Source: a virus
Direction: 5' to 3' (one strand)
Length of the DNA stretch: 40,353 bases
IMG/VR virus record: IMGVR_UViG_3300045185_000022
Notes under the pieces: model-generated
The model's input: only the letters and a program-made list of their open reading frames with translations
The model's database searches: none
Told to the model about the DNA's origin: nothing
Made by a program: the position numbers and the translations under genes
Shown here: positions 8,258 to 25,980 of the stretch, in pieces
How positions within the stretch are numbered: the first letter of the stretch is position 1
Layout of the letters: each line of letters opens with the position of its first letter

Positions 8258-8265
8258 GGGGATGC

Positions 8266-9450: not shown

Positions 9451-10477
9451 AGAGAACCTGCGCCGAGATGATGATGGCGGGATTGGTGACCTGTCGAAAC
9501 AGATCAAAGACCTCCAGACCGCGAACCCGCTCGAGAACGGATCAGTCGACACTGGCACGCTCACGATCCGTTCAAGCCAGGACGGGCTCGTGATCGAGGC
9601 GGGCGGGCAATTCCTCGCGAAGGACGGCGCGACCATCCTCATTGAGGCGCTGCTGCGAGTGACGGGGCAAACCCAACTCGGGGACACATGGACCAATCAA
9701 CTCATCTCGAACGGCAACCTGTTCGCGAACGGCCAGCTTGCGGTCGAGGGCAAAACCTATTTGAACGACATCCTCGACGTGGATGGGACCACCGACCTCC
9801 GTGGCCGAGTGAATTTTCGCAACGATCTGTACGCACTCGAGCTTCCAGAGGCGTCGTCTCCAACGTCGATGAACATCGTGCTGGTCGATGATGGCGGAAA
9901 GTTCTATCGGGGCCCGAAGTATTCGTCTGGTGGTACGGGTGGCTCGGATAACCCGACTTCGCCTGGCGGGTTGGGTGAGGGCCCGGCTGCGCCGTTTTCG
10001 TATCAGGCGTTTTCGATTGGAAATGGGTCGGGCGAGGCAGACTTCGGGACTCGGAACACCGCGAAGGGCTGGCATGACGGGCTCGACTTCGCGTATGACG
10101 GCGCCGGGTACGGTGCTGCGGTGAGGTCGGTCGCGACTGGCACGGTCGTGAACTCGTCCTATGCGAATCATTCTGATGCCGGCCCCTACCCTGTGTGCAT
10201 TGATCATGGGCCGCTCGAGGCTGGATCGCACGCGGGGAGGCGACTCTATTCGGTGTATTGGCACATGCTGGACCGCACGGTGTCGGTCGGCGATTCGGTG
10301 ACGGCAGACACGGTGATCGGGCATGTCGGCGCGTACGGCAATGTCACGGGGCCGCACCTGCACCTCGAGCTGCATCTGGATTCGCTGCACTCGAATTGGC
10401 CGGTGCTTGGCCTTGATTCGTCGACTGGTGCGCAGGATCCTGTTCCGATTTTTAATGAGTATGGGGGCTGGCGGTAA
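9443..10477 (+). CDS. Tail-associated peptidoglycan hydrolase with C-terminal M23 peptidase domain
   Basis: HxxxD (WHDGLDF) and HxH (GPHLHLELH) motifs with YSVYWHM between them; N-terminal fibre-like region. Confidence 0.75.
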   Translation: MPKENLRRDDDGGIGDLSKQIKDLQTANPLENGSVDTGTLTIRSSQDGLVIEAGGQFLAKDGATILIEALLRVTGQTQLGDTWTNQLISNGNLFANGQLAVEGKTYLNDILDVDGTTDLRGRVNFRNDLYALELPEASSPTSMNIVLVDDGGKFYRGPKYSSGGTGGSDNPTSPGGLGEGPAAPFSYQAFSIGNGSGEADFGTRNTAKGWHDGLDFAYDGAGYGAAVRSVATGTVVNSSYANHSDAGPYPVCIDHGPLEAGSHAGRRLYSVYWHMLDRTVSVGDSVTADTVIGHVGAYGNVTGPHLHLELHLDSLHSNWPVLGLDSSTGAQDPVPIFNEYGGWR

Positions 10478-10947
10478 TGGCGAAATATAGCGGTACGGTT
10501 GTGCGGCCGTCGAGTGTGGCGCATGTGGCGTCGGCTCGGGCGCAGTTGCAAGTAAAGCTGGCGGAGCCGGGGACGCGTTCGGGATCGCTGGTGAATGACG
10601 ACACCATCGTTGTTGACGTGCCGTCATCGGGCGCGTTCGAGGTCGATTTAATCCCGTCTCCGCAGATTCTCTCCCGGTCTGGTCGGCCCGCAGTGTATAG
10701 CGTCGCGGAGTCGTGGCTGGACCCTGACGGCGTGCAGATCCCCGGCGGGTACTCCGAGTGGGGGACGTTCTACCTTGGCGCGTCTGGCGGCACGCTCTCG
10801 CAATATAAGGTGGCGCCGCCTGGCACGCCGGTCATCGAATGGGTGTCGACCCTCGCGGAAGCGCAGGCCCTCGAACCGACCCTCGCGAAGGGCTCAATCA
10901 TCATCGTCGCCGGTAGCACGGCCTGGAATGTTTACGAGGTGTCGTAA
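10477..10947 (+). CDS. Minor tail protein / hypothetical
   Basis: TAATG overlap; 156 aa; inside the tail-tip module. Confidence 0.5.
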   Translation: MAKYSGTVVRPSSVAHVASARAQLQVKLAEPGTRSGSLVNDDTIVVDVPSSGAFEVDLIPSPQILSRSGRPAVYSVAESWLDPDGVQIPGGYSEWGTFYLGASGGTLSQYKVAPPGTPVIEWVSTLAEAQALEPTLAKGSIIIVAGSTAWNVYEVS

Positions 10948-12503
10948 TGGCTCTAACACTGATTGGCAGTATCGCCGCAATTACTGACGCGGTGGCTGCG
11001 AACCTCGTATCCGGCCCGACGCAGACTCGTGCCGCGGTTGACGCGCGCGTGCGCGGCATTGTGCCGGCTGAGGTGTCGTCGCAGATCGCGAACTCTACGA
11101 CGTTGCAGGCTGCGTTGGCGGCGATGATCGGCAATCTCGGTGATGCGAACCTCGCGGCGGAGTATGCGCGCACGATTACGCCGACTGCGGATTGGAACAC
11201 GCTCACTCAGCGTGGTGTGTGGCGGCGCGCGTCAGCGACTCCGAACGGGTCGAACGTGCCGCCGACGCAGGCGTCGGGCACGCTGTATGTGACGAAGTCG
11301 AACGAGCAGACTGACCAGGCTGGCGGGCAACTGTTCATGGCCGCTGACGGTATTTGGTACCGCAGCGTTTCTGATGCGGGCGTGTGGTCGGAGTGGCGTG
11401 CGCTCGATTCCGACTATCGCGGGCTGATGCCGGATGGACAGTCGATCGATGACATGACCGGCCAGCAGTGGACTGGGCAATGGTATGTGCCGTCTACTGC
11501 TGCGGCGGACGCGCTGGTGGGTGCGAAACCGCCGATGAGCGGGCCGGGCACGTTCACGGTCGTGTCGTCGCGCACGTCGGGCTATTCGCACACGGTGCAG
11601 TGGTGGTCGATGCACCTGCTGTCAGGCTCGAAGCTGTTTATGCGGCTCACGGTCGCGTCGGGCGCGTTCAATGACTGGATTGAGGTTGGCGGTGCCGGGA
11701 GTAGTGCTGGCGCGCGTGACCTGCGCCTGCAACTGTTTGAGGAGGCGTACCCGCTCGTTTCGACAGGGAATAAGGGCGTCGTCGTGCTTCGGTATGACCA
11801 CGGCCTCACGAATTTCAAGTCGACGATCCTGCCGTTGCATCAGCAATACAATCTGCCTGCCTATATCGCGATGAATTCCCGCAACTGGTCGCTCGATGAG
11901 AACTCGGGCGCAACGCAGGAGGAAGCCCGGTCGTGGGCGAACGTCGAATGGGGCAACCATTCCGCCGACCACGAAGACAAGTCGGGTGGGGCCGCGATCT
12001 ACGACAACATCGTGAACGGCCGCATCGAGCTCGAAGCCCAGTTGGAACGCACGATCCACGGCTACACCGCGCCGGGGTTGACGGGCGGCCAGTTCGACGG
12101 GTTCAACACCGGCTGGGTCGACGGCTACTCCAACACGCCCGCGGGTGCGATGATCCTCGACCATCACGCGATCGCGTCCGGCGGGATCGGCGACACGAAC
12201 TTCCGCCCCCTGGACGGGAAGATCCGCATCGGTGGCCGGCATTACACGTGGGAGCAGCGCACGTACGCACAAATCAAGGCCGAGATCGATACTGCGATCT
12301 CGACCAAGACCGCGCTGACGATTATGGCGCACCCGCGCACGATGAACCAGTCCGGGTATTGGACGCCGGCACTGTTGGAGCAGGTGCTGGCCTATATTCG
12401 GTCGCAGATCGATGCGGGGAACCTCGCTGATCTGACCTACTACCAGTCGCAGCATGCGGTGTTGCGGACGCCGGTCGAGGCATTCCAGGCCGCACTCGCC
12501 TAA
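10947..12503 (+). CDS. Tail fibre/spike protein with CE4 (NodB, polysaccharide deacetylase)-like C-terminal domain, paralogue 1
   Basis: Contains LRYDHGLTNF, GNHSADH (H-S-x-x-H), YTAPG and TIMAHP in NodB motif order. The N-terminal half has two knob-like W-rich repeats. Confidence 0.6.
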   Translation: MALTLIGSIAAITDAVAANLVSGPTQTRAAVDARVRGIVPAEVSSQIANSTTLQAALAAMIGNLGDANLAAEYARTITPTADWNTLTQRGVWRRASATPNGSNVPPTQASGTLYVTKSNEQTDQAGGQLFMAADGIWYRSVSDAGVWSEWRALDSDYRGLMPDGQSIDDMTGQQWTGQWYVPSTAAADALVGAKPPMSGPGTFTVVSSRTSGYSHTVQWWSMHLLSGSKLFMRLTVASGAFNDWIEVGGAGSSAGARDLRLQLFEEAYPLVSTGNKGVVVLRYDHGLTNFKSTILPLHQQYNLPAYIAMNSRNWSLDENSGATQEEARSWANVEWGNHSADHEDKSGGAAIYDNIVNGRIELEAQLERTIHGYTAPGLTGGQFDGFNTGWVDGYSNTPAGAMILDHHAIASGGIGDTNFRPLDGKIRIGGRHYTWEQRTYAQIKAEIDTAISTKTALTIMAHPRTMNQSGYWTPALLEQVLAYIRSQIDAGNLADLTYYQSQHAVLRTPVEAFQAALA

Positions 12504-12520
12504 CCACACTCTCTCACTCA

Positions 12521-12546
12521 AGCCACCCCTGCGGGTGGCTTTTTTG
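12521..12546 (+). terminator. Intrinsic terminator between the fibre paralogues
   Basis: AGCCACCC-ctgc-GGGTGGCT followed by TTTTTG. Confidence 0.8.
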
Positions 12547-12579
12547 TTGCACCCACACGGTGCGGAAAGGGGCAGACCG

Positions 12580-14019
12580 GTGGATGACGACCTGGTGCAG
12601 CTCGCAACCCTGATCGGTGTTGAACTCAAAACCCGTGGCACGATCCGTGCACTCATCCCCGCCGACACGGACGTGAACACGCTCCGCACCCCCGGCGTGT
12701 ATGCAGTCGCATCGACCACGATCGCTGCCTCACTCATCAACTGGCCGGAACCGGTCACGGGGCTTCTCGTGGTCGAAAAAACGCCCCAGAACCAGATGAC
12801 GACGCAGAACGTGTACCTGTACAAGTCAACATCGCAGCCACCGAAGAAATACTCGCGCGTGAACCGTCTCGCATCGAACGATGCGTGGACGGCGTGGGGT
12901 TCCCCGGAATGGGCGCAGGCCGTGTTCGGCGGCACGTCCGAGACTCCCGCGAACGTTGACATGCATGTCGAGGCGGGCGCGTGGCTCGTCACCGCACCGG
13001 CCACGGTGACTGGTTTGCCGGCGGTGACGGCGACCGGATGGATTATCGAGAATCTGCGGTTCCGTGACTCGACAGTGATGCTGCAGCGTGCGACGGCTCG
13101 CACGTCGGGTGCGCCTCGCGTGTTCACTCGGGTCGGTGCGGTGCCTGCCGCGACGGGTTGGAATGGTGCCGCCTGGCATGAACTCGCGGCCGGTGGTGGA
13201 ACCACGCCGGTTGTGGCGGAGGACGCGGGGCTCGCGAACGCGATGCTGCTGCAGGACTTCGTGCGCCGGCGCGGTGGCCGCAAGAAAGTGACGACCGGGG
13301 TTATTTCGTTCCGTTTCGATCATGGCCTCGCGAACTTCGACACGAAGATCCGGCCACTGCTCGAGGCCCGCAACATCCCGTACAGTCTCGCGCTCTGCTC
13401 CGGCCAATGGTCACGTTCGGAGAACGTCGGTGTGACTGCGGCGATGGTCAACGGCTGGGTTGAGGGTGGTCTCGCGGAGGTCTGGAACCATTCGAAGGAT
13501 CATGGCTCGGGCGACAACTCGACTGCGCAATGGCAGGCCGCGATCCAGGACGGTCTCACCGAACTGCAGGCGCAAATTCCGGCCGCGCAGATAGACGGCT
13601 GGGCACCCCCAGGTTCCTCTGGTACGGACTTTGGCGGGTTCACGAACGGTGGCACGATCCCGCAACTGTTGACCGAGGGGGGCCGCTATATCCTCGCGCG
13701 GCACGCGATCACTGCCGGCTACCTGTCTGGCACCGTGTATCGGCTGTTGGATGGGAACCCGCGTAACGCGCTCACGCATGTGACGGGGGATAAGCAGACG
13801 CAGGCGCAGCTCGAGGCGTACCTGAATGGCGCGGTCTCGCAACGCAAGGGCGTGCAGATCATGATTCATCCGTCGCTGGTCGACTCGGAGGGGTATATCA
13901 CGACGGCGGAGATCGAGGGGTTCCTGGATGCGGTAGTGACCGCTCGCGACGCTGGCCAGGTGGCGGTGATGGGGCCGTACGACGCGCTCCTCGCTGACGC
14001 GACCGACGCTGCGATCTAA
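12580..14019 (+). CDS. Tail fibre/spike protein with CE4-like C-terminal domain, paralogue 2
   Basis: GTG after GGAAAGGGG. FRFDHGLANF, WNHSKDH, WAPPG and IMIHP are collinear with 10947-12503. The track start at 12454 lies upstream of the terminator. Confidence 0.6.
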   Translation: MDDDLVQLATLIGVELKTRGTIRALIPADTDVNTLRTPGVYAVASTTIAASLINWPEPVTGLLVVEKTPQNQMTTQNVYLYKSTSQPPKKYSRVNRLASNDAWTAWGSPEWAQAVFGGTSETPANVDMHVEAGAWLVTAPATVTGLPAVTATGWIIENLRFRDSTVMLQRATARTSGAPRVFTRVGAVPAATGWNGAAWHELAAGGGTTPVVAEDAGLANAMLLQDFVRRRGGRKKVTTGVISFRFDHGLANFDTKIRPLLEARNIPYSLALCSGQWSRSENVGVTAAMVNGWVEGGLAEVWNHSKDHGSGDNSTAQWQAAIQDGLTELQAQIPAAQIDGWAPPGSSGTDFGGFTNGGTIPQLLTEGGRYILARHAITAGYLSGTVYRLLDGNPRNALTHVTGDKQTQAQLEAYLNGAVSQRKGVQIMIHPSLVDSEGYITTAEIEGFLDAVVTARDAGQVAVMGPYDALLADATDAAI

Positions 14020-14038
14020 CCGCGCCCCAAACGTTGAT

Positions 14039-14059
14039 CCCCGTTACGGGGCCATTTTT
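14039..14059 (+). terminator. Weak stem-loop plus T-run
   Basis: CCCCG-tta-CGGGG, then CCATTTTT. Confidence 0.35.
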
Positions 14060-14079
14060 CATGCCTGAAAGGGGCAGCA

Positions 14080-14973
14080 ATGACTCATTCGAAGCTCACG
14101 AACAAGATCAGTCTCAGCAGCCAGTCGAGTTCGCGTGACGGCACGAAGATCGATCGGTTCCTCGTTCACCACGCAGCAAGCACCTCGCAGTCCGGCGTGG
14201 TCGACATGATGGTGCGCGCGACCCGCACAGTCTCGGCGAACTATGTCATCGGCGACACAATCACCTGTGTCGTTGACGAGGATCGCCGCGCCTGGACTTC
14301 TGGCGCGTCGGGTGACGGCGGCCGCGGCGCAGCGTTCGACACGCGCTCAATCACCGTCGAAACCATCAATGACTCGACGGACGGTTGGACGGTCAGCGAC
14401 AAGACGTTCGACAACCTCGCGCGCCTCATCGCCGATTGCGCCACCCGCTACGACTTCGACATCACCGATGACACCGTGCTCACGCACCAGGAACTCTGGT
14501 CGCGGTTCCGTGCTTCGTACGCAACCGCGTGCCCTGGGGATTTGCAGCGCCGTAAGGCCGAGCTGTTGAAGCTCGCGAAGTCCTACCAGGACGGCAAGGC
14601 CACCGGGGGTGGTACTGCCGCGTCGAAGCCTGCGACGTCGACGCCGGCGCGCGCCTCGTGGGAGGCGACCGCGTTCGGCATCGGCACCACCGCCACCGCC
14701 GCGCAGTGGAAGACGATTCAGAGCTGGCTCAAGAAGCTGGTCCGCTATGACGGCCCCGTTGATGGTGTGCCCGGCCAGAACACCTGGAAGGGCATTCAGC
14801 GCACCGTCGCCAAGTACGGCTACTACGACGGCCCCATCGACGGTGTTCCCGGCACGAACACCGCGAAGGGAATGCAGTCCTACGCACGCAACGGCGGCGG
14901 CTACACCGGCCCCACCGACGGCGTGCTCGGCGCGAACTCGTGGGCCGGGTTCGTCAAGCGGCTTTCGAGCTAG
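14080..14973 (+). CDS. Endolysin: N-acetylmuramoyl-L-alanine amidase (Amidase_2/PGRP type) with three PG-binding repeats
   Basis: FLVHHAAS ... THQELW ... ATACPG. The C-terminus has three copies of Y(D/T)GPxDGVxGxN(T/S)xxG. Confidence 0.85.
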   Translation: MTHSKLTNKISLSSQSSSRDGTKIDRFLVHHAASTSQSGVVDMMVRATRTVSANYVIGDTITCVVDEDRRAWTSGASGDGGRGAAFDTRSITVETINDSTDGWTVSDKTFDNLARLIADCATRYDFDITDDTVLTHQELWSRFRASYATACPGDLQRRKAELLKLAKSYQDGKATGGGTAASKPATSTPARASWEATAFGIGTTATAAQWKTIQSWLKKLVRYDGPVDGVPGQNTWKGIQRTVAKYGYYDGPIDGVPGTNTAKGMQSYARNGGGYTGPTDGVLGANSWAGFVKRLSS

Positions 14974-14981
14974 GAGCGATC

Positions 14982-15398
14982 ATGCCGAAGCGTCTCGTGA
15001 CCTGGATGCATGACCCGCCCGAGTGGCGGCCGGTGTGGCTTGGAGGGCATCTGTGGGGTGCGCTCATGGGCGCCGTCACGCTCACCGCGCCGCCGCTCAC
15101 GATCAAGGGCGAGCTCGGGCCTGTCCTCACCACCGTGTGGGGAATCCTCGCATTGGTCGGTTCGCTCATCGCCGCCGCGAACGTCTACTCGCGGCATGCA
15201 TGGGCGGAACGCCTCGGTATCCAGATCGCGGCGCTCGGCACCGGCCTCTACTCCGCAACAATCCTCTACCTGTGGGTTTCCACGGGGGAGAACCGCGGCA
15301 CACAATTCTTCGCCGTGTCGCTCGGCCTGTTCTTCTTCCTGGCGCGGTTCCTCACGGTCGAGCACTGGGACGACCGCGACCTCGCACGGGAGATCTGA
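14982..15398 (+). CDS. Holin-like membrane protein (4 predicted TM segments)
   Basis: RBS AGGAG; 138 aa with four hydrophobic stretches; directly after the endolysin. Confidence 0.65.
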   Translation: MPKRLVTWMHDPPEWRPVWLGGHLWGALMGAVTLTAPPLTIKGELGPVLTTVWGILALVGSLIAAANVYSRHAWAERLGIQIAALGTGLYSATILYLWVSTGENRGTQFFAVSLGLFFFLARFLTVEHWDDRDLAREI

Positions 15399-15736
15399 TG
15401 CCGCTCTGGGAATACATCGTCTCGCTCGCGACGGCACTCGGTGTCGGCACGATCGTTCCCAAGATATTCGACAAGCTGGCCGCGAACATGACCGAGCGAG
15501 GGCAGCGCCGCAGGAAGGACGCGGAGCGCCTCGCGCAGCTCGTGGACGAAGCGAAGCGCGAGCGAGACGAAGCGATCGCGCACCGCGACGTTGAAGCGTC
15601 CCGTCGTCGCCGCCTCGAGGAACATGCGTCGCGGCTGCGCCGAATCCTCGCGGAAGCACCGTGCGTCGACTTCGACACGATCCCGCCCTGGCCTGGAGGC
15701 ACGGGGCCAACACCTACGCAAGGAGACTACAAGTGA
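15398..15736 (+). CDS. Membrane-anchored coiled-coil protein (lysis accessory, possibly holin/spanin-like)
   Basis: TGATG overlap; N-terminal TM segment (IVSLATALGVGTIVP), then an Arg/Glu-rich helix. Confidence 0.5.
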   Translation: MPLWEYIVSLATALGVGTIVPKIFDKLAANMTERGQRRRKDAERLAQLVDEAKRERDEAIAHRDVEASRRRRLEEHASRLRRILAEAPCVDFDTIPPWPGGTGPTPTQGDYK

Positions 15737-15975
15737 CCTCTACCCCGAACCTCGGCGCTGTGATTCAGTCGCCCACCGCCCGCCGTTGGATTTACGGCGT
15801 CTACATCATCGCTGTGTTCATCATCGGATGTGTTCAGGTCGGCTTCGCTGCGGTGGATGCTGGCCAGCCTGACTGGCTGACGGTCGCTCTCGCGGTCGCC
15901 GCGTACGCGGGTGTCCCTGTTGGCGCGCTCGCCGCAGCGAACACGTCAACCTCTACCGGCAAGCACACCGAATAA
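15733..15975 (+). CDS. Small membrane protein (2 TM)
   Basis: GTG after AAGGAGA; 80 aa; two hydrophobic segments; last gene of the late operon. Confidence 0.5.
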   Translation: MTSTPNLGAVIQSPTARRWIYGVYIIAVFIIGCVQVGFAAVDAGQPDWLTVALAVAAYAGVPVGALAAANTSTSTGKHTE

Positions 15976-15996
15976 CCTTCATCCCCAACGATTGAA

Positions 15997-16048
15997 GCCC
16001 CCACCTTCACGCTGAGCGCGTGCGGGTGGGGGCGCTTTCGTCGTTTCC
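15997..16048. terminator. Terminator between convergent transcription units
   Basis: GCCCCCACC (15997-16005) pairs with GGTGGGGGC (16025-16033), then GCTTTCGTCGTTTCC. Confidence 0.6.
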
Positions 16049-16051
16049 GGG

Positions 16052-16237
16052 CTACGACCGCACCCAGGCGATGACTTCACCCTCGCCAAGCTCGACCAGC
16101 CCACGCGCCTCCTCAAGCGTCGACGCCGCGATCTCGACCTCGCGCGGCGCATCCACCTCCGGTCGATCGCCGAGCGCGTCACGCTCCGTCTCCGAGAGAG
16201 CAGCAGCAGTATTGACGGTCTTGATCATCACGTGCAT
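16052..16237 (-). CDS. Small acidic hypothetical protein (about 58-61 aa)
   Basis: High GC3; MHVMIKTVNTAAALSETERDAL...; net charge about -7; the start could be 16237 or 16228. Confidence 0.45.
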   Translation of the reverse strand: MHVMIKTVNTAAALSETERDALGDRPEVDAPREVEIAASTLEEARGLVELGEGEVIAWVRS

Positions 16238-16274
16238 GGCATTGAGCTTAGGCCGCGGGCAGCCTTGCAACGGA

Positions 16275-16318
16275 GGGAATAATATTCCCAACTCACTTGA
16301 ATCGGGCATATTATTCCC
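16275..16318. promoter_or_regulatory. Twin 15-bp AT-rich palindromic operator-like sites in a divergent promoter region
   Basis: GGGAATAATATTCCC (16275-16289) and GGGCATATTATTCCC (16304-16318), 14/15 related after inversion. Each contains a TATTAT -10-like hexamer facing outward. Confidence 0.6.
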
Positions 16319-16359
16319 TCGCTTGCAAGAGTGTCGGCGGCGGGAGCTACCCTCTGCGC

Positions 16360-16656
16360 ATGAGCAAGCAGCATCTAGAGGGTGCCGACGCGATCGTCGC
16401 CGCGATCGAGGCGCAGGCGCGCCAATCCCATCCGCTCGCCGAGACGATCCACCCAGGTCAGGTGTGGCGCGTGCACGGCCACAGCACCGCGACGATCGGC
16501 TGGGTGCGGTACCTCGTGCCAGAGCGTGGCACCGGGCCCGCCTATCACGCCTACGCTGACCGGCGTGAGGATGGTGTACGGCCGTGGCTCAAGAGCTTCG
16601 CGACACTCGACTCAGCCGTGGCATGGGTCTACCAGCACCGCGGGGAGCTCAGCTGA
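16360..16656 (+). CDS. Hypothetical protein (98 aa)
   Basis: ATG downstream of the palindromes (MSKQHLEGADAIV...); His/Trp-rich; no family recognised. Confidence 0.5.
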   Translation: MSKQHLEGADAIVAAIEAQARQSHPLAETIHPGQVWRVHGHSTATIGWVRYLVPERGTGPAYHAYADRREDGVRPWLKSFATLDSAVAWVYQHRGELS

Positions 16657-16831
16657 GATCGTCCACGATGCTCTCGATCGTGCCCTGACGTCCGCGGAAC
16701 TCGATCACATCCGGCAACTCGGCATACTCGTGCAGCACCGCCACGCAGGCATTCACGGCCTCAAGCTGACGGTCCGCAGGCACCTGCTCAATGAGAGCAC
16801 CGAGCACGTCCAGGGCTTCCTCAAGATCCAT
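16649..16831 (-). CDS. Small strongly acidic hypothetical protein (60 aa)
   Basis: MDLEEALDVLGALIEQVPADRQLEAV...; net charge about -11; convergent with 16360-16656 and overlaps it by 8 nt; no SD sequence. Confidence 0.45.
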   Translation of the reverse strand: MDLEEALDVLGALIEQVPADRQLEAVNACVAVLHEYAELPDVIEFRGRQGTIESIVDDLS

Positions 16832-17025
16832 GCGGGGGAGTCTACGCGGCGTAGTTTCGTGCCCACTTTTTGCCCACATTTTGCCCACGAAACTCACGCT
16901 TTGCCCACATTTGCCCACACTTTCCACCGCTCTCAGCATCCCGCCACATCCACCGCACCCCGCCGACTTACCAGGTAAACACTGGGCACGCGGCGAAAAC
17001 ACGGCGGAGACAACAACCTCGGCAC

Positions 17026-17053
17026 GCGGGTTCGATTCCCGTCATCCCCTCGC
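17026..17053 (+). other. tRNA 3'-end fragment (T-arm plus acceptor 3' strand), probable attP core
   Basis: GCGGG-TTCGATT-CCCGT, then CATCCCC. No matching 5' acceptor strand or D-arm lies upstream, so it is not a complete tRNA. Confidence 0.65.
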
Positions 17054-17060
17054 AGTACAT

Positions 17061-17111
17061 CGCCCCGCCTTGCCAGTAGAACACTGGGGAGGCGGGGCGT
17101 TTCTCGTTTCC
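17061..17111 (+). terminator. Terminator following the tRNA fragment
   Basis: CGCCCCGCC (17061-17069) pairs with GGCGGGGCG (17091-17099), then TTTCTCGTTTCC. Confidence 0.6.
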
Positions 17112-17114
17112 CCA

Positions 17115-18194
17115 CTAGCCTTCTGCCCACATTTTGCCCACACTTTCGGACAGTGCCGACGCGACCGCATCAAGATCCGTGTCGAAAAGATCCGCATACA
17201 CATCGAGCGTCACCGCGGCCGAAGCATGCCCGAGCATCCGCTGAACCGCCTTCACGTTCGCGCCAGACTGCACCGCGAGCGACGCCGCAGTATGCCGCAG
17301 ATCGTGCGGAGTCACACGAGGGAACCGCTTATCTGTGGCGCGGCAGCGGTTCACCGCACCCGCAAACCAGCCATGGTCAGCATTGGGGCGCTTCACCCGG
17401 TCGCCGTCGACCTGCCAGACCGGCACTCCCGGCATCGCCCGCGGCACGAGCTTGAGGATGAAGTCAGGGATGGGGACTTCTCTGGACTCCCACGTCTTCA
17501 CGGCCTCGGTGATCCACTCGCCTCCGCGGTACGTCATTGACTTCGTGACGAGGATTCGCCGGCGCCGCCAGTCAATGTCATCCCCGTCGAGCGCGACCGC
17601 CTCGCCCCAGCGCAGGCCGGTGAGTGCGAGGAATCGGACGAGCGCGCCGTACCGAGACTCGCGCGCGAGGGCATCGACCTGCGCTGCGGTTAGGTAGGCG
17701 TGGCGCCCTTTCTGTTTGCGGGGGAGCTCTACGGTCGCATCGCGGGCAGGGTTCGAGCGGATGAGCTTGTCACTCACCGCGAGGTCGAGGATGCCGGCGA
17801 GCACGCCACGAGCCCGGTGCACGACGGTGGGGGACTTGTCGATGCTGTTTGCCCACTCGTGGACCTCGGACGGCAGGATGCCACCGATCGGGGTGGCCGA
17901 CCAGTAGGGCTGAACGTGGATGCGCCACGCCGATTCGAGGTCGCGTTGATAGCTCGCCTTCTTCTTGCTCTTGAGCGCGAGCCAACGTTCAGCGAGCGAG
18001 CCGACGGTGACCTTGCCCTTCGCTGGGTCGATGTAGTCGCCGGTGAGTTTGGCGACCTCGACGGTCGCGGCGAACGCCTCGGCGTCCTTCTTGCGAGCGA
18101 ACCCGCGCTTGTCGGTCTGCGCGCCGTCAGGCTTGCGGTAGCGCACACGGTAGCGAGGGCCAGCGTTGGTCTCGTACTTCGTGATCGTCGCCAT
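17115..18194 (-). CDS. int: Tyrosine integrase
   Basis: MATITKYETNAGPRYRVRYRKPDG (arm-binding N-terminus) ... HDLRHTAAS ... LGHASAAVTLDVYADLF (R, HxxR and Y catalytic blocks). Confidence 0.9.
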   Translation of the reverse strand: MATITKYETNAGPRYRVRYRKPDGAQTDKRGFARKKDAEAFAATVEVAKLTGDYIDPAKGKVTVGSLAERWLALKSKKKASYQRDLESAWRIHVQPYWSATPIGGILPSEVHEWANSIDKSPTVVHRARGVLAGILDLAVSDKLIRSNPARDATVELPRKQKGRHAYLTAAQVDALARESRYGALVRFLALTGLRWGEAVALDGDDIDWRRRRILVTKSMTYRGGEWITEAVKTWESREVPIPDFILKLVPRAMPGVPVWQVDGDRVKRPNADHGWFAGAVNRCRATDKRFPRVTPHDLRHTAASLAVQSGANVKAVQRMLGHASAAVTLDVYADLFDTDLDAVASALSESVGKMWAEG

Positions 18195-18204
18195 GATTTT
18201 TCTT

Positions 18205-18627
18205 TCATTCGGTGCCGCGCCACAGTAAGTCAGCGCGCCGGTAATTTGAAGCGGAGGAAAGCCACACGCGCAGCATGTGAGGAGTGACGGCGAGTTCGTC
18301 ACACCACCGCTCTGGGTGGTCTGGATGGCTACGGGCGCACGCGACGACAAGTTCGGCGGTGATCAGCATGTCGGCTGCCCATCGATCAGCACGGGCCTCG
18401 CTCTTGCGAGTGGTGGTGGTGTCGCCGTAGTGGTGGTGCCCGAGCTCGTGCGCGAGTGCGCTTCGCCTGGACATGTAGGTGATGCCTCTACGAACGACGA
18501 TGAGGTCGTGGCGATGGTAGTAGCGGCCCATCTCGGGGATATCTGCTTCGACCACCTCGAGTGCGTGCTCTGCAGCGTGCAAGTCTGGGTCCCACATGGG
18601 ACAGATCATGCGCTGAGCCTGCGACAT
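18205..18627 (-). CDS. ImmA/IrrE-family zinc metallopeptidase
   Basis: HEXXH motif in SALAHELGHHHYGD; 140 aa; its start lies 1 nt after the stop of the XRE repressor. Confidence 0.7.
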   Translation of the reverse strand: MSQAQRMICPMWDPDLHAAEHALEVVEADIPEMGRYYHRHDLIVVRRGITYMSRRSALAHELGHHHYGDTTTTRKSEARADRWAADMLITAELVVACARSHPDHPERWCDELAVTPHMLRVWLSSASNYRRADLLWRGTE

Positions 18628-18628
18628 A

Positions 18629-19264
18629 TCAGTCTTTGTCGAGTTCGTCCTCGCTCTCGTCATTGCCTGCGACATATCCGAGTTCGGGGATTTCCCTTGG
18701 CGCGGTGAACCGTGAACCGAATCGGTCGTCCGCATCGATGACGTTGCCCGGCGCGTCGGTCTCGATGTGCTTTTCGAGTTGCTTGACACGGATGTTGATT
18801 TCGTTGAGGAGTTGCTCGGTCGTAAACGAAGACAATGCTGAGCGTCGGTCATTCGTCTCCCGGAGATTCATGTCCCAGACCTCGGCGTCGTAAGCCTCCT
18901 GTGCTTCCCAGTTCGCCGGCATGTCGATGAGATCGGAGGACTCGCTGCCCTCTTCCTGGGCGAGCAACCAGGCTTGCCGGTCGCGCATGTCTTGTTTCCA
19001 CTCATCAAAGTTCGGGATGTCGAGATCGTCCGGGAAGTTCGAGATGAAGTGCGAGTACCTGAGTTCGTCGCCAAGCGCGCGTTCGATCTTGCGTGTGCTG
19101 CGGCTCGGCACACCGGTCGTTTCCCAGTTGACGATCGTGCGGACGCTGACTCCTACGGCGTCCGCTAGATCTTGCTGCGTCCACCCTTTGAGCGCGCGTG
19201 CGTCTTTGAGGACTGTCCAATCAATGTTCACAAATGGCAGTTTAGGCAAGAACTGAAGAATCAC
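18629..19264 (-). CDS. XRE-family HTH repressor (CI/ImmR-like) with long acidic C-terminal extension
   Basis: LKGWTQQDLADAVGVSVRTIVNWETTG; divergent from the cro-like gene. The start is uncertain (GTG 19264 or GTG 19231; no SD, possibly leaderless). Confidence 0.8.
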   Translation of the reverse strand: MILQFLPKLPFVNIDWTVLKDARALKGWTQQDLADAVGVSVRTIVNWETTGVPSRSTRKIERALGDELRYSHFISNFPDDLDIPNFDEWKQDMRDRQAWLLAQEEGSESSDLIDMPANWEAQEAYDAEVWDMNLRETNDRRSALSSFTTEQLLNEINIRVKQLEKHIETDAPGNVIDADDRFGSRFTAPREIPELGYVAGNDESEDELDKD

Positions 19265-19309
19265 ACAAGGCGTGTTGCCCGAAACTTCGGGAAAGTCAGG
19301 AAAGTTTTG

Positions 19310-19338
19310 TTGCCTAAGTTGCTTAACTTGCGTATGTT
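19310..19338 (+). promoter_or_regulatory. Candidate early rightward promoter
   Basis: TTGCCT (19310-19315), a 17-nt spacer, then TATGTT (19333-19338), 16 nt before the cro ATG. Confidence 0.4.
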
Positions 19339-19353
19339 GCCTACTCTTGCCTT

Positions 19354-19599
19354 ATGGCAGCAACCAGGAAACTCAACGGCACAGCAGTCCGGGTAATCCG
19401 TGAACTGCTTGGCGTCCGAAACGGAGACCTTGCTCTCCGGATCCAAGTCACACCATCCACTGTGACTCACATTGAACGTGCAGATCGGCAAGTTTCGGCA
19501 GAAACGCAGCGTCGACTCGCTGACGCACTCGGTGTCCCTCTCGAAGCGATTACATACCCGACTGAACCGGCCCTCGAGCAGGTCAGCATCGCCGCGTAG
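19354..19599 (+). CDS. Cro-like XRE HTH protein
   Basis: 81 aa; VIRELLGVRNGDLALRIQVTPSTVTHIE; divergent from the repressor. Confidence 0.8.
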   Translation: MAATRKLNGTAVRVIRELLGVRNGDLALRIQVTPSTVTHIERADRQVSAETQRRLADALGVPLEAITYPTEPALEQVSIAA

Positions 19600-19866
19600 T
19601 CGCGGCCCCATCCTCTTCCTGCCCTACTCAGCGGCAGGGACACCGGAGCCTCTAGCGCTCCCTGACTCTCGCCCGTCCACTTACGGCGGCGCGATCGAGC
19701 CTTTGAGAACTCAATAGCGGAAATCGCTCCCGGTGTGGAGAGAGATACGGGCACCCCTTCGACGTGGCTACGGGGGAGCCCACACTACGCGCGGCGTCAG
19801 GCCACGGTTCTCGGACGCGCGTAAGGCACCGGCCCCACACAAGGGAGCGAACACCAAACAAGAAAC

Positions 19867-19902
19867 GGCCCCGGCGCAGTTGCACCTGCGGATGCCGGGG
19901 CC
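19867..19902 (+). promoter_or_regulatory. GC-clamped stem-loop 22 nt upstream of the ParB-like gene
   Basis: GGCCCCGGC pairs with GCCGGGGCC, with an inner GCAG/CTGC stem. Related to the hairpins at 25981 and 35033. Confidence 0.5.
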
Positions 19903-19923
19903 TTACGAGATCAGGAGGTCTCG

Positions 19924-20892
19924 ATGATCAGTGTAGATGACTACCAGCGGGGAGTGCGAGAAGATCTCGCCCCCATCAAGCTCCCCGCACATCCTTTAGC
20001 CGACCGGTTCCCGATGCTGCCCGCCGACGAGCTGCAGCGCCTCGCAGATGACATTCGTGAGAACGGCCAGCGGCACCCCGTCATCGTCGATGACGAAGGC
20101 CTCATCCTGGACGGCCGCAACCGCGCCGCCGCATGCAAGATGATCGGCGTTGAGCCGACCACCGCGTTGTACGAAGGCGACGATCCGGCGGCGTTCGTGC
20201 TCTCGCAGAACGTCGCTCGGCGTCACATGACGACCGGGCAGCAGGCGATGAGCACGGCGCTCGTGCTCGCAGATTCCGGCAAGCGCGAGAACGGCCGTTG
20301 GAAGCGCGGCGCAATCCCTAATCAGGAATCCCTGAATAGCGATTGGAAGAACAAGCTCACTCAGGCGGGGCAGATTCTCGACTCTGCCCCGCACCTCGCG
20401 GAAAAGGTCATCGACGGAGATCTCGCCCTTGACGCCGCGGTGAAAGAGGCCGAACGCATCCGAGAGTCGGAGCGACAGCAGCTCGAAGAGCAGCAGCGCA
20501 TGGAGGCCGAGGAAGCCGACCGGCTCACGCACCTGCAAGAGGCCGCGCCCGAGTACGCCGCCGCGATCGGTTCCACCTACCGCACGGCACGTCAAGCCTT
20601 CGCCGCGTGGGAAGACGACAACCGGCGCGAAGCCGCACGCCTACGACAGGAACGGCGCGAAGCCGAACAGACAGCGAAGGCCGAGTGGGAGTCGAACCGC
20701 GACCTCTACGACGACGTCGCCTCGAGCCTGTCGAGCCTCGCCCGCTACGGCGACACCGACATTGACGAGTTCATGAAGGCCTACGAACCGTCAATGCTCA
20801 CCCCGAACATTCAGCGGCGGTTCAACGCCGAAGTGATGCGCGCAGCAGCGAAGGCTGCGACCGCATTCGCGGTCTGGAAGGAACAGAACTGA
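19924..20892 (+). CDS. ParB-like nuclease domain protein with coiled-coil C-terminus
   Basis: RHPVIVDDEGLILDGRNRAAACKMIG (ParB N-terminal/Srx fold motif); RBS AGGAGG. Confidence 0.7.
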   Translation: MISVDDYQRGVREDLAPIKLPAHPLADRFPMLPADELQRLADDIRENGQRHPVIVDDEGLILDGRNRAAACKMIGVEPTTALYEGDDPAAFVLSQNVARRHMTTGQQAMSTALVLADSGKRENGRWKRGAIPNQESLNSDWKNKLTQAGQILDSAPHLAEKVIDGDLALDAAVKEAERIRESERQQLEEQQRMEAEEADRLTHLQEAAPEYAAAIGSTYRTARQAFAAWEDDNRREAARLRQERREAEQTAKAEWESNRDLYDDVASSLSSLARYGDTDIDEFMKAYEPSMLTPNIQRRFNAEVMRAAAKAATAFAVWKEQN

Positions 20893-21416
20893 TGCAGGTC
20901 GAAGACTATTACTCGAAGTTCATCATCGAGTCCTATGACGCCGTGGTTGGCGAGCATGGCGACGACCCGACGGTCGTGGCGGAGGTGTTCGGTGACGTCG
21001 AGGCTCGTGTGAGTCGCGCAATCATGAGCGGCGAGATTGCGCCGATCGAGTTGACGCAGCGTGACGCGATCTTGCTGCGCATGCAGCTCGTCTTGCCGAA
21101 GGAGCGCAAGCGTCGGCGGAGCAGCTTCCCGAAGGACCTCGAATACCTCGGCGACGCGATCGCGAATCCGCTCGAGGCCGCGAACATGGACGCGATTCTG
21201 TCGCGGGCGATGCCGCTGGGCGACGGCACCGACAAGGTGCTCGCGTTCTGGAACGGCCGCGACTACGAGCGTGCCGTGAAGGTGCGCTACCGCAACGCGG
21301 CCGACGCTACGGCGAAGGCGGCGCAGTTCGACAACCTCACGATGCCGATTCTCGATGCCCTCGACTCACGTCACGCGCACACGACTCGTGACCTGTTCTG
21401 GAAGGACGCTGCCTGA
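20892..21416 (+). CDS. Hypothetical protein (174 aa)
   Basis: ATGA-type overlap; high GC3. Confidence 0.6.
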   Translation: MQVEDYYSKFIIESYDAVVGEHGDDPTVVAEVFGDVEARVSRAIMSGEIAPIELTQRDAILLRMQLVLPKERKRRRSSFPKDLEYLGDAIANPLEAANMDAILSRAMPLGDGTDKVLAFWNGRDYERAVKVRYRNAADATAKAAQFDNLTMPILDALDSRHAHTTRDLFWKDAA

Positions 21417-21727
21417 TGTTGAGCGATCGCGTGAAAGAGACCTGCATGAAGGCCGTCGAGCACCTCGAGTTCTCAATCGACCAGATCAGCGGGTCCATGT
21501 GCGACACCTCGCACGAGGATGCCCTGGAAGTGCTCGACCTCGTGGTCGAGGCGCTGCGGGAGTTGCACGGCGAGACGAACGACCCGATGCGGTATGAGGA
21601 CGGCACTCCGGTTGCGCAGCGCGTCCGAGTCGCGGAGGGCGTGTCTGGCACCTACTACCACCGCCACGACGGCGACTTCGACGAGTGGCTGGCAAAGTTC
21701 CGTCCCAACCTGCAGGCGGTGAAGTGA
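21416..21727 (+). CDS. Hypothetical protein (103 aa)
   Basis: TGATG overlap; acidic. Confidence 0.6.
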   Translation: MLSDRVKETCMKAVEHLEFSIDQISGSMCDTSHEDALEVLDLVVEALRELHGETNDPMRYEDGTPVAQRVRVAEGVSGTYYHRHDGDFDEWLAKFRPNLQAVK

Positions 21728-21924
21728 TGCCTGACTGCTGGTTGACACCTGCGATGGTCGCGGACTCGTACCGGCTCCCTGTCCCCACGTTGAAGGAGAT
21801 GCGCGCTCGTCGCGCGAATGACCGTGCGGGGGAGAAGGGACCGGTGTTTTACAAGATCGGGCGGGCTGTCCGGTACCGGGCCTCTGATGTTGAGGCATGG
21901 CTGAACGAAAAGAAGGTGGCCTGA
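21727..21924 (+). CDS. Excisionase-like / MerR-type HTH DNA-binding protein
   Basis: 65 aa; LTPAMVADSYRLPVPTLKEMR ... YKIGRAVRYRASDVEAWL, a typical Xis/HTH_17 pattern. Confidence 0.6.
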   Translation: MPDCWLTPAMVADSYRLPVPTLKEMRARRANDRAGEKGPVFYKIGRAVRYRASDVEAWLNEKKVA

Positions 21925-22244
21925 TGACTGTTCAGGAGCTGCGGGCTCGTGGCCGGAGTGTGGCCGTGCGCTTGATCGCGAGGAAGGGCAAGTACGGGGC
22001 GCGGCCGATCTTCGTGTCGGTCGACCTCGGTGACCTCGGTGAGGCGCGTCGTGATTTCAAACCGTCGGAGGCGCTCGAGTTCGTGCAGACGTTGGATGCG
22101 GCGCTTGAGGGCGAGACGGATCCGGTGACGTTCTCGCTGCCTGGCCTGTCGTGGGCGGTGCAGGTGACGGCGCCGGCGGCGTCGGTGCGGGCGTTCGCAG
22201 AGCAGATCGCCGACCTCTGCGACGAGTTGGAGGCCGTCTCGTGA
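21924..22244 (+). CDS. Hypothetical protein (106 aa)
   Basis: TGATG overlap. Confidence 0.55.
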   Translation: MTVQELRARGRSVAVRLIARKGKYGARPIFVSVDLGDLGEARRDFKPSEALEFVQTLDAALEGETDPVTFSLPGLSWAVQVTAPAASVRAFAEQIADLCDELEAVS

Positions 22245-22381
22245 CCGTGCTGGACGTGATTTGTCTCGACGGTGACTGGCCGGAGCTCGGGCCGATCTCG
22301 GGTGATGGTCTCGCCCGTCACCACCACATGGAGCCGGTCGACTACCCGCTTCTGTGGAGCCTGCCGGGGGTGACCGCCTGA
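22241..22381 (+). CDS. Hypothetical small protein (46 aa)
   Basis: GTGA overlap start; fills the gap in operon phase. Confidence 0.35.
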   Translation: MTVLDVICLDGDWPELGPISGDGLARHHHMEPVDYPLLWSLPGVTA

Positions 22382-22470
22382 TGTTTGAGCGATTGAAAGC
22401 GTTCGTGGAGTACCTCGCGGCGCAGCGTGACGAAGCGCTGGATGACGAGAACGGAGAAACCAATGAATGA
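22381..22470 (+). CDS. Hypothetical small protein (29 aa)
   Basis: TGATG overlap; MFERLKAFVEYLAAQRDEALDDENGETNE; below the ORF-track cutoff. Confidence 0.3.
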   Translation: MFERLKAFVEYLAAQRDEALDDENGETNE

Positions 22471-22651
22471 CCTCAGCCGTGCGCAGCTCGCACAGTTTCA
22501 GCCGCAGGATTTGCGCGATGGTCACGCGGTCCTCGCGCTCATCGGCGTCATCGGGCTCACCCAAACCCCCTCGAATCTCGTCTGCTCAGGCATGGCCATG
22601 AGCCTGCCGCTCTACCTCGCATTGCGGGCATGGCGGAAGGAGACGCGATGA
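22463..22651 (+). CDS. Small membrane protein (62 aa)
   Basis: RBS GGAGA; hydrophobic segments AVLALIGVIGL and MSLPLYLAL. Confidence 0.45.
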   Translation: MNDLSRAQLAQFQPQDLRDGHAVLALIGVIGLTQTPSNLVCSGMAMSLPLYLALRAWRKETR

Positions 22652-23037
22652 CCTGCCCGCCCGAGCATCGGCATGGCGAAACCGCGCACTGCTACCAGGC
22701 GCATTCGTGCAGGTGTGAGCGTTGCGTGGATGCGTACAGCGAGCGGCGCCGGGGCGTACAACCCACGAATGCGCTGCAGTCGAGCCGACGCCACGGCCTC
22801 TGCAATGTCTGCAAACGCGAGCCCGTCGAAGCGCCGCGCGTCACCTGCGAGGGCTGTGTCGCTTACATGATGGCGCTGCCGCGAACCCCGGAGGCGTTCG
22901 ATTCCTGCCATCGCGGGCATCCGTGGACGCCGGAGAACACTCGCAAGGTTCGCGACGGTCGCGAGTGCCGCGAATGTTCCCGCATCCGCTCACGCGCGAG
23001 GAGCGCCCGTCTTAGAGCGATGAGGGAGAAAGCATGA
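22648..23037 (+). CDS. Cys/His-rich zinc-binding, probably DNA-binding protein
   Basis: HGETAHCYQAHSCRCERC ... CNVC ... CEGC ... CHRGHPWTPENTRKVRDGRECRECS. Confidence 0.5.
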   Translation: MTCPPEHRHGETAHCYQAHSCRCERCVDAYSERRRGVQPTNALQSSRRHGLCNVCKREPVEAPRVTCEGCVAYMMALPRTPEAFDSCHRGHPWTPENTRKVRDGRECRECSRIRSRARSARLRAMREKA

Positions 23038-23486
23038 ACACGTTGACGTTCTTCGTCGCCGGCATGCCAGCACCTCAGGGCAGCAAAACGTATCTCGGGC
23101 ATGGGCGGATGAAGGAATCCTCGGAGAAGGTGAAGCCGTGGCGTGCTGATGTGCGTCATGAGGCGCAGCGCGCGATGGACGACCAGCACTGGTCGACGTG
23201 GGAAGACGGGGACCAGCCGCTGTCGATCGACGTCACGTTTTGGATGCCTCGCCCGAAGTCGCATCCGAAGACGCGCCGCACTCTGCCCGACCGGATGCCT
23301 GACCTCGACAAGTTGCTGAGGTCAACGTTCGACGCGCTCAAGTCAGCCGGCGTGTGCGCCGATGATGCACGGTTCGTGCGCATCCTCGCCACGAAGCGCT
23401 ACGTCCATCCTGCCGGTCTTCGGCATCCATCCGAGCCCGAAACGACCGGCGCTCGCATCCACATCAGACCAGAAAGCGTGTCATGA
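23034..23486 (+). CDS. rusA: RusA-like Holliday junction resolvase
   Basis: FVAGMPAPQGSK ... WMPRPKSH ... PDLDKLLRSTFDAL ... DDARF. Confidence 0.8.
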   Translation: MNTLTFFVAGMPAPQGSKTYLGHGRMKESSEKVKPWRADVRHEAQRAMDDQHWSTWEDGDQPLSIDVTFWMPRPKSHPKTRRTLPDRMPDLDKLLRSTFDALKSAGVCADDARFVRILATKRYVHPAGLRHPSEPETTGARIHIRPESVS

Positions 23487-24388
23487 ACGTCCTAGAAGAA
23501 CTGGCGACTCGTGAGGTCGCGGATGAGTCGATCGACCGTGAAGCGTGGCTTGCGGCACGCCGTGAGGGTGTGACGGCAACGCAGGTTGCGAAGCTCGCGG
23601 CGTCGCCGGCGTACGCGCTCGAGCTGCGTCGAGAGAAGGCGACCGGCGTGCAGACCTTCACCGGGAACGCAGCGACGGAGTGGGGGAAGCTGCGCGAGCC
23701 GATCATCGCGGAATGGTATGCGGGGTCGGGGCTGGAGCCGACCTCGAAACTGTACCGGTCGAAGGAAGATCCGCGGTTCCTCGCGTCGCCGGACATGATC
23801 GGTGAGGACTTCTCCGAGCACCTGTTCCTGGGCGAAATCAAAACCTCGAAGCACAACCTCTCGCCCGAGGGTGAGCACTTCGCGCGAACGACGTACGCGG
23901 ACCAGATGCAGTGGCAGATGTTCGTGACGGGCGCGACCTGGTGTTCGTTCATCTGGGAACAGCACGACGGCACCTGGGTCGAGCAGTTCGACGGCACGTT
24001 CGGTCCGACACCATTCGACCCGCGCACGGCGACGATCGAGCGCGACGACGACCGCATCGAGCACCTCGTTGGGGTTGCTGAACGGTTCCTGTCGGCCGAT
24101 GCGGAGGCCGCTGGCGCGGAGGCGTGGATCGTCGAGTATCTCGACGCGAAGGAAGCGGAAGCCGCAGCGAAGGCGCGTGTCGAGGCTGCGGCGGATGCGT
24201 TCCGTGACCTGTTCGCGGACGGTGGCGCGGTCGAGACGCCCGCTGGCCGCGTGTCGGTGTCGATCCCGAAGCCAGTGAAGCGGTTCGACTCAACGAAGTT
24301 CAAGGCCGAGCACGGCGATCTGTACAAGCAATTTCAGGTGGAGGGCGAGCCGGGGAAGGCTCGCGTCACCGTGACAGGAGTGAAGTAA
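23483..24388 (+). CDS. YqaJ/lambda-Exo-like recombination exonuclease (PD-(D/E)XK)
   Basis: GVTATQVAKL ... WGKLREPIIAEWY ... ASPDMI ... LGEIKTSK. Confidence 0.75.
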   Translation: MNVLEELATREVADESIDREAWLAARREGVTATQVAKLAASPAYALELRREKATGVQTFTGNAATEWGKLREPIIAEWYAGSGLEPTSKLYRSKEDPRFLASPDMIGEDFSEHLFLGEIKTSKHNLSPEGEHFARTTYADQMQWQMFVTGATWCSFIWEQHDGTWVEQFDGTFGPTPFDPRTATIERDDDRIEHLVGVAERFLSADAEAAGAEAWIVEYLDAKEAEAAAKARVEAAADAFRDLFADGGAVETPAGRVSVSIPKPVKRFDSTKFKAEHGDLYKQFQVEGEPGKARVTVTGVK

Positions 24389-25918: not shown

Positions 25919-25980
25919 GGCGATATTCCCGGTATCTGCAGAGGCCGAAAGGTTCTGCATAGCCTAGGAATTACGCAAAC

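Follow-up and report, generated by a model that had tools for sequence, protein, structure and literature searches.

Three separable small genes beside attP of a temperate actinobacteriophage: a possible slot for leaderless accessory genes

What kind of genes occupy the short stretch between the lysis genes and the attachment site of a temperate phage, and do they act together or apart? We asked this of IMG/VR record IMGVR_UViG_3300045185_000022, a viral DNA stretch of 40,353 nt (the window), in which three small open reading frames (ORFs) precede attP: gene A (16052–16237, minus strand), gene B (16360–16656, plus strand) and gene C (16649–16831, minus strand). The window is a complete temperate siphovirus-type genome with a G+C content of ~64%, and the phage host is a Gulosibacter- or Microbacterium-like actinobacterium of the family Microbacteriaceae. 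An earlier reading, made without database searches (the sequence-only reading), had described the three genes as one accessory cassette. Comparisons with loci in related prophages and in genomic or metagenomic contigs, labelled L001–L019 and L139, suggest that the attR-proximal end of a tRNA-Gly prophage has a variable accessory ("moron") slot, which would hold three separable small protein genes rather than one machine. The genes would be autonomous and leaderless, probably constitutive and likely expressed in the lysogen, with a layout that sets A and C against B. Taken as a whole, we judge the chances of this reading to be evenly balanced.

Three separable small genes next to attR

The position of the block is defined by two prophage junctions. 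Positions 6649–17052 of the window are 100% identical to an integrated prophage end at attR (L008, on the 653-kb metagenomic contig Ga0485478_00017), and the other prophage end, attL (L139), carries the window's exact integrase protein beside an intact tRNA-Gly(TCC) gene. Because both junctions are available, the common core of attP can be assigned to 17021–17052 on the plus strand, where it is identical to the 3′ end of the host tRNA-Gly(TCC) gene. The sequence-only reading had placed A, B and C between the lysis genes and attP, and the core fixed from both junctions confirms this. The order along the window is an amidase gene and other late genes, A-B-C, attP, the integrase gene int, and genes for an ImmA-like protease and an XRE repressor; no other gene separates A-B-C from attR in the lysogen. 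Upstream of A lie the amidase endolysin gene and small ORFs that look membrane- or holin-like by eye.

Short frames are plentiful in G+C-rich DNA (58 ORFs of at least 30 amino acids overlap one 4.5-kb stretch, and 60-residue ORFs are frequent at 64% G+C), so open frames alone prove nothing and comparative tests were used. The coordinates, strands and lengths of the three ORFs (61, 98 and 60 amino acids for A, B and C) are as originally described. Homologues from metagenomic and genomic prophages are 66–99% identical to B, 70–80% identical to C and 53–68% identical to A (in L002, L006 and L011); one C homologue comes from a Microbacterium sp. Pairwise ratios of nonsynonymous to synonymous substitution rates (dN/dS) are 0.11–0.30 for B, 0.08–0.22 for C and 0.27–0.70 for A. 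Between the window and L002 the ratios are 0.18 for B and 0.09 for C, with an excess of synonymous changes in both (Fisher p ~1e-10); the synonymous excess in A is marginal (Fisher p 0.02–0.3). Variable sites are enriched at codon position 3 in C (p = 5e-8) and B (p = 0.004), and weakly in A (p = 0.1).

By these measures B and C clearly encode proteins and are under strong purifying selection; A, too, is probably a gene, with relaxed constraint. Gene A runs for 61 codons from the ATG at 16237 and is an ORFan; a longer, 85-codon frame reaches 16309, but the added N-terminus is not conserved. Its G+C content by codon position is 0.74/0.46/0.77, and the homologue in L014 contains an in-frame TAG. 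Conservation as coding sequence, on which the sequence-only reading had made its proposal depend, is thus strong for B and C and weak for A, which one relative carries with a nonsense codon. The possibility that the three frames are open by chance, in non-coding DNA of high G+C content by attP, draws on the frequency of 60-residue frames at this composition and on the weak constraint on A. It is excluded for B and C by dN/dS, the strong purifying selection and the third-position excess, the start codons and upstream boxes are conserved, and B has a confident predicted fold and ~18 small homologues; we give it next to no probability.

Genes B and C converge and overlap by 8 nt at 16649–16656, as originally noted. 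The overlap lies inside a perfect palindrome, CTCAGCTGAG (16648–16657), which is why both proteins end in Leu-Ser-stop, and a 3′ overlap is conserved in relatives, amounting to 20 nt in L002. The net charges of A, B and C are –7, 0 and –11 and the isoelectric points 4.4, 7.1 and 4.05, respectively. Of the description of two products as strongly acidic helical peptides, the acidity holds for A and C, and the helical character only for C, as judged from its AlphaFold2 model.

The relatives fill the slot in different ways. All of A-B-C are found in the window and L008, in L002–L005 and in L011. B and C occur with other genes in A's place in L012 and L013, and A-B is followed directly by attR, with no C, in L006, another prophage located on contig Ga0485478_00017. 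B stands alone between a DUF3800 gene and an att site in L001, L007 and L016 (Gulosibacter faecalis), and is accompanied by the nonsense-mutated A in L014. C is present without A or B in L009, L010 and L019, which represent a Microbacterium-type phage with the order int, tRNA-Arg, a small gene D, C and other ORFans. Genes for DUF3800, Pyr_excise, DUF6932 and acetyltransferase proteins and further ORFans also occupy the slot in relatives. The genes in A's place in L012 (66 and 165 aa) look like HicA/HicB by eye, but Pfam gave no confirmation. B is the anchor gene of the slot, usually located after the lysis genes and often last before attR. A and C are companions that can be parted from it: five of the seven B lineages have a divergent A, and four have a C that converges on B. 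The cassette first described therefore stands as a variable accessory slot, filled by unrelated genes in relatives, and falls as an obligate module, since its members occur apart.

This distribution bears directly on the proposal that the acidic proteins are antitoxin partners of B. In its fullest form the proposal describes a toxin–antitoxin-like or effector–inhibitor triad, in which A and/or C would keep B, a toxic or active effector, in check, and the B/C overlap would add antisense control. The small size and strong acidity of A and C (–7 and –11), the recurrence of the divergent A and convergent C partners, and the conserved 3′ overlap all fit a triad of this kind, and small genes with two acidic products on a mobile element recall type II toxin–antitoxin systems. 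But B occurs alone (L001/L007/L016), with a nonsense-mutated A (L014) or with A in the absence of C (L006), and C occurs without B (L009/L010). That B is kept without either acidic protein argues against A or C as its essential antitoxin. Furthermore, the genes are divergent (A/B) or convergent (B/C) and form no co-directional operon, constraint on A is weak, and Pfam, PADLOC and NCBIfam give no match to a toxin or antitoxin family. The genes are real but separable, which makes the toxin–antitoxin reading very unlikely in our estimate. A, B and C would more probably each act singly.

Candidate leaderless promoters and the A/B intergenic region

A TANNNT hexamer is located 6–7 nt before the start codon of each of A, B and C, and it is conserved across loci between which dS is ~1, i.e., with synonymous sites near saturation. 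The candidate –10 box of A is TAAGCT (16245–16250, minus strand), 7 nt before the ATG, and a box (TAAGCT, TACACT or TATGCT) followed by 6–7 nt and the start codon is found in the window, L002, L006 and L011. For B, the candidate box is TACCCT (16348–16353, plus strand), 6 nt before the ATG and with conserved GTCGGCGGC upstream; eight B loci, down to 43% protein identity, have TACCCT, TACGCT, TATCCT, TACGAT, TACTCT, TACATT or TAGACT 6–7 nt before the ATG. The candidate box of C is TAGACT (16839–16844, minus strand), 7 nt before the ATG, and is part of a motif, CGCGTAGACTC....GCATGGA, conserved in the window, L002, L009, L011 (with TAGGCT) and L012 (with TAAACT). None of the three genes has a Shine-Dalgarno-like sequence at a proper distance, whereas 15 of 32 other gene starts checked have one. 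The box signature occurs at only seven coding-like ORF starts in the 40-kb window, among them A, B, C and a possible start of the XRE repressor.

Boxes of this kind at this spacing, in genes that lack a Shine-Dalgarno sequence, make up the leaderless layout that is classic for Actinobacteria. In this respect A, B and C, with the box 6–7 nt before ATG or GTG, resemble leaderless actinobacterial genes, many actinophage repressors included, and each gene may be a leaderless transcription unit with its own box. Host RNA polymerase with the housekeeping sigma factor should be able to read such boxes without phage activators. The XRE repressor gene (18629–19264, minus strand) has a TAAACT box and a 7-nt spacer before a GTG at 19231, 11 codons inside the longest ORF, which suggests that its transcript is leaderless. 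With boxes that the host should be able to read, and with the same layout at the possible repressor start, expression of all three genes in the lysogen is probable.

Independence of the block from the late and integrase operons, as proposed in the sequence-only reading, is plausible given the conserved –10-like box before each gene and the terminator-like hairpins that flank the block at 15997–16033 and 17061–17099. The first of these (inverted repeat I14), G+C-rich with 16-nt arms and a 5-nt loop, has a plus-strand T-run after it and looks like a terminator of the late/lysis operon; gene A, on the minus strand, stops just short of it. The second (inverted repeat I13), with 17-nt arms and a T-run on the plus strand, separates the attP core from the end of int; the rebuilt tRNA gene would terminate at this hairpin, which would also part int from the block. 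The 3′ half of the hairpin at 15997–16033 is similar to the hairpin at 17087–17111 (direct repeat D6). This 3′ half, GGGGCG(C)TTTC.CGTTTCC, is conserved at 16024–16048 and 17087–17111 in the window, at ~8030–8060 in L001 and at ~5750–5790 in L014. An Rfam scan of 15800–17300 gave nothing near any gathering score.

In relatives, the –10 boxes of A and B are mirror images ~27 nt apart, which would form a compact bidirectional promoter. In the window, the boxes are separated by an AT-rich palindromic insertion of 66 bp (16264–16329, 45% G+C) with 22-bp terminal inverted repeats, CTTGCAACGGAGGGAATAATAT, and two 15-bp palindromes, GGGAATAATATTCCC (16275–16289) and GGGCATATTATTCCC (16304–16318). The insertion carries sigma-70-like TATTAT boxes on both strands, with two promoter-like matches compared to 0.3 expected. 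With it, the A–B intergenic region becomes a 104-bp near-palindrome with 51-nt arms at 16245–16295 and 16298–16348 (inverted repeat I1), and the predicted single-strand fold of the region has a free energy of –30.5 kcal/mol (z = –5.7). The insertion is absent from all relatives compared (L002, L006, L011, L012 and L001), its palindrome is found nowhere else in the window, and a scan of viral contigs for the 15-bp palindrome met it only by chance, in AT-rich phages that are unrelated. A and B are divergent, as had been described, but the AT-rich promoter region that they were thought to share is a lineage-specific addition and not a conserved promoter. The insertion might act as an operator pair, as a source of extra promoters or as an insulator.

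The proposed arrangement in the window would thus comprise back-to-back A and B promoters parted by an operator-like palindromic insert, and convergent B and C genes with no terminator between them, so that the B and C transcripts would overlap. The back-to-back promoters and the convergence without a terminator imply that expression of B likely competes with that of A and C. If the leaderless promoters are real and active in the lysogen, the A/B promoter pair would be a minimal example of promoter competition.

Protein families and possible roles

The sequence-only reading found no recognisable family for the three proteins, and profile searches with A, B and C and structure searches with B and C agree, as none gave a significant match to a known family or fold. 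A, B, C and the product of gene D have no significant match in Pfam, PHROGs, PADLOC or NCBIfam, and tblastn with the three proteins returned nothing significant from 50,697 phage records. DNA searches of the same phage genomes with the region and with 25 kb of the window found no relatives. Scans of metagenomes and viral contigs for further B and C loci added almost nothing.

B is a neutral protein of 98 residues with seven His, and belongs to an unannotated family with an α-β5-α fold: in the AlphaFold2 model (mean predicted local distance difference test score, pLDDT, of 88.6) a helix is followed by five β-strands and a second helix. A profile search with B against 1.84 billion cluster representatives gave 23 matches, of which ~18 are genuine small proteins (68–144 residues); the large multi-repeat proteins P0018, P0021, P0023, P0025 and P0034 were rejected as artefacts of summed repeat scores. 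Five homologues are close. All homologues begin MSKQ or MNKQ, and the National Center for Biotechnology Information annotates a 96-residue protein at the same start in the Gulosibacter homologue. Pro25, Trp36 and Ala86 are invariant in the family, and His24, Trp76, Gln92 and His93 nearly so. The named members, from Gulosibacter faecalis (= [Zimmermannella] faecalis), Gulosibacter sp. and Pseudoclavibacter endophyticus, are all annotated as "hypothetical protein", and B founds a small unannotated α/β family in Gulosibacter and Pseudoclavibacter. Pfam gave no significant match for any of the 21 B-family members. A sequence-profile search of the PDB found only low-complexity-like partial matches to CylK repeats, and Foldseek with the B model gave nothing significant in the PDB (best E-value 1.4) or in BFVD (best E-value 0.08, to an uncharacterised protein). 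We also considered B as an AP2-type or integrase-arm-type domain, on the basis of recurrent ~50-residue BFVD matches. These are not significant, and hhalign against the arm domain of the window's integrase gave a probability of 0.3%, so this assignment was rejected. The host contig Ga0485478_00017 contains two related prophages at different tRNA-type att sites, L006 (424–441 kb) and L008/L139 (208–262 kb), each with its own B allele next to attR; the two alleles are 68% identical.

C, which converges on B, is highly conserved. Its AlphaFold2 model (pLDDT 81.6) shows a helix-helix-β-hairpin-helix arrangement for which Foldseek found nothing significant in the PDB (best E-value 2.5). The suggestion that the proteins are antitoxin-, toxin-, defence- or DNA-mimic-like finds no counterpart in these searches, which gave no family match for any of them and no significant fold match for the B and C models.

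The position of the block offers a guide to function. Cluster N and Sbash mycobacteriophages express the equivalent central region in the lysogenic state, and the region confers defence (PMC6426596). The defence loci of actinobacteriophages (cluster N, Sbash gp30/31 and CarolAnn gp44) likewise lie between the lysis and the integration/immunity cassettes and consist of variable small ORFans, and such genes are lysogenically expressed in those phages and defend against heterotypic phages (PMC6426596, PMC6426606). By analogy with the actinobacteriophage loci in the same position (PMC6426596), we infer a role in conflict for A, B and C, whose products would most likely act between prophage and host or between phages, in exclusion, defence or counter-defence. 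The analogy has its limits: A, B and C have no homology to those proteins or to any PADLOC model and no significant match in the 50,697 phage genomes, and the host is a member of the Microbacteriaceae, not a Mycobacterium or Gordonia. Conserved ORFans in the slot between lysis genes and attP are already familiar from temperate actinophages; A, B and C are ORFans without annotated relatives.

Morons, in the sense of Hendrix and Juhala, are exemplified by bor and lom of phage lambda. A, B and C resemble them in being variably present between conserved modules at a prophage end, and in being flanked as a block by terminator-like hairpins with a promoter-like element for each gene, with no terminator between B and C. 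They differ from morons in that their composition is the same as that of the rest of the genome and their products belong to no known moron family.

Several observations weigh against a variable slot of autonomous, lysogen-expressed conflict genes. The G+C content over 16001–17000 is 0.63–0.65, compared to ~0.64 genome-wide, and only the 66-bp insert is AT-rich; the block thus matches the phage and shows no compositional sign of foreign origin. Distant homologues of B are found elsewhere, in an early or immunity-type operon (L017) and beside a GmrSD-like gene (L018), and these differing contexts mean that the attR-end position is typical only of the closer relatives. The pairing of A with B in five of seven B lineages leaves room for some functional link between the two. 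The promoters and leaderless starts are themselves predictions, and neither PADLOC nor Foldseek with the B and C models detected a resemblance to known proteins of defence, exclusion or anti-defence.

Two other accounts also assign the proteins to conflict. In the first, A, B and C would be early anti-defence or host-takeover genes, transcribed from host-type promoters immediately after genome entry, and C, perhaps also A, would be a DNA- or protein-mimic inhibitor like small acidic anti-restriction or anti-CRISPR proteins. The small size and very negative charge of the proteins, promoters that would need no phage factors, the high conservation of C (dN/dS ~0.1) and the varying content of the slot are in line with this. 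High negative charge by itself does not define a DNA-mimic family, and C differs from DNA mimics such as Ocr, ArdA and AcrIIA4 in having no Pfam match and no fold match in the PDB beyond the insignificant one given above. Neither fold nor sequence matches any known mimic or anti-defence protein, no helix-turn-helix (HTH) regulator adjoins the genes as it typically does in anti-CRISPR loci, the 50,697 sequenced phage genomes contain no significant match, and the attR-end position resembles that of lysogenic-conversion genes; we regard this account as unlikely. In the second, B would be the first of a new family of prophage exclusion or defence effectors that work as single genes and have a fold found in neither the PDB nor BFVD. 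Its output would be gated by the symmetric bidirectional leaderless promoter shared with A and by convergent C, with A and C serving as transcriptional or additionally as protein-level brakes. We consider this version rather improbable.

To our knowledge, almost no temperate phages of Microbacteriaceae have been characterised. Should the leaderless promoters be real and active in the lysogen, B would be a tractable new lysogen-expressed family from prophages of this bacterial family.

The attP arms, the integrase and the surroundings of C

The analysis gives precise positions for attP, its arm repeats and the site of integration. On the C-proximal arm of attP, TTTGCCCACA is directly repeated four to five times (16860–16919, plus strand; repeat family D1). 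The repeats are present on both arms, with seven matches compared to 1.4 expected, and two of them (17122–17142) fall in the last codons of int; the motif also occurs at 17848–17857. They are candidate arm-type integrase sites. Similar repeats occur in L006 (8300–8335), next to attR of the second prophage in the same host. The tyrosine integrase (17115–18194, minus strand) has 359 residues and an arm-DNA-binding domain recognised by Pfam. Beyond int lie the gene for an ImmA/IrrE-type M78 peptidase (18205–18852), which is paired with the XRE repressor, the repressor gene itself and a divergent gene for a Cro-like HTH protein.

This arrangement invites the question of whether B or C acts on attP or the integrase, as a recombination directionality factor or as a sensor of the integration state. 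Across attP from int, the first gene is always C, which runs in the same direction as int and would be cotranscribed with it only in the circular form of the phage. The one-strand order of int, attP (or tRNA and D) and C is kept in the window, L009, L011 and L012, a scan of early-region ORFs in the window (19264–26000) revealed no canonical excisionase (HTH_17/Xis), and the recurrent ~50-residue BFVD matches of B to AP2-type or integrase-associated domains, although not significant, would point in the same direction. On the other hand, the extreme acidity of C is unlike that of DNA-binding directionality factors, C occurs with three integrase types, and L006 has the same arm repeats without C. 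L009 has an HTH_17 protein of its own beside the repressor. B is neutral, not basic, its profile does not align with the arm-binding domain of the window's integrase (the 0.3% probability above), and a constitutive-looking promoter is unexpected for an excision factor. None of A, B and C is basic or matches HTH_17/Xis, and B has an α-β5-α fold, not the winged helix typical of excisionases. Nor is there a fixed link to integrase or attP, as the att sites next to B are of different tRNA types and some B genes have no integrase nearby. A part in integration or excision is in our view decidedly doubtful.

The relation of C to int invites comparison with sib retroregulation in phage lambda and with integration-dependent immunity, reportedly described by Broussard et al. 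in 2013. The likeness lies in an element placed across attP from int, whose linkage to int differs between the circular and the integrated state. The window is unlike these systems in that C has its own conserved promoter-like box, a hairpin lies between int and attP, and attP is not within a gene.

Gene D usually precedes C in relatives, and in L009, L011 and L012 the C –10 box overlaps the stop codon of D. The window retains a 12-nt remnant of the 3′ end of D, ACGAAACTACG (16848–16858), just upstream of the C box (compare L009 ~7915–7930). This implies a deletion or recombination that swapped D for the attP arm. A complete tRNA-Arg(TCT) gene is located between a short integrase gene (~280 codons) and D-C in L009 (7685–7758), L011 (7191–7264) and L012 (7742–7815), and these loci may be a case of tRNA-dependent lysogeny as in PMC10865867.

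In the lysogen, an 8-kb satellite-like integrative element (L008 1822–9795) lies just past attR, in tandem with the prophage. It encodes a 389-residue integrase, an HTH_17 protein, an AAA_25 protein and small ORFs, and a 15-bp direct repeat belonging to the same tRNA-Gly core, GAGGGGATGACGGGA, bounds it. Over the catalytic domain, the element's integrase shares only 27% identity with that of the phage, and the element has a repeated motif of its own, GTGCCAC.T.CGTGCCATAAG, near both ends. Elsewhere in the window, two adjacent genes for apparently tail-associated proteins of ~520 residues (10947–12503 and 12454–14019) both encode a polysaccharide deacetylase domain.

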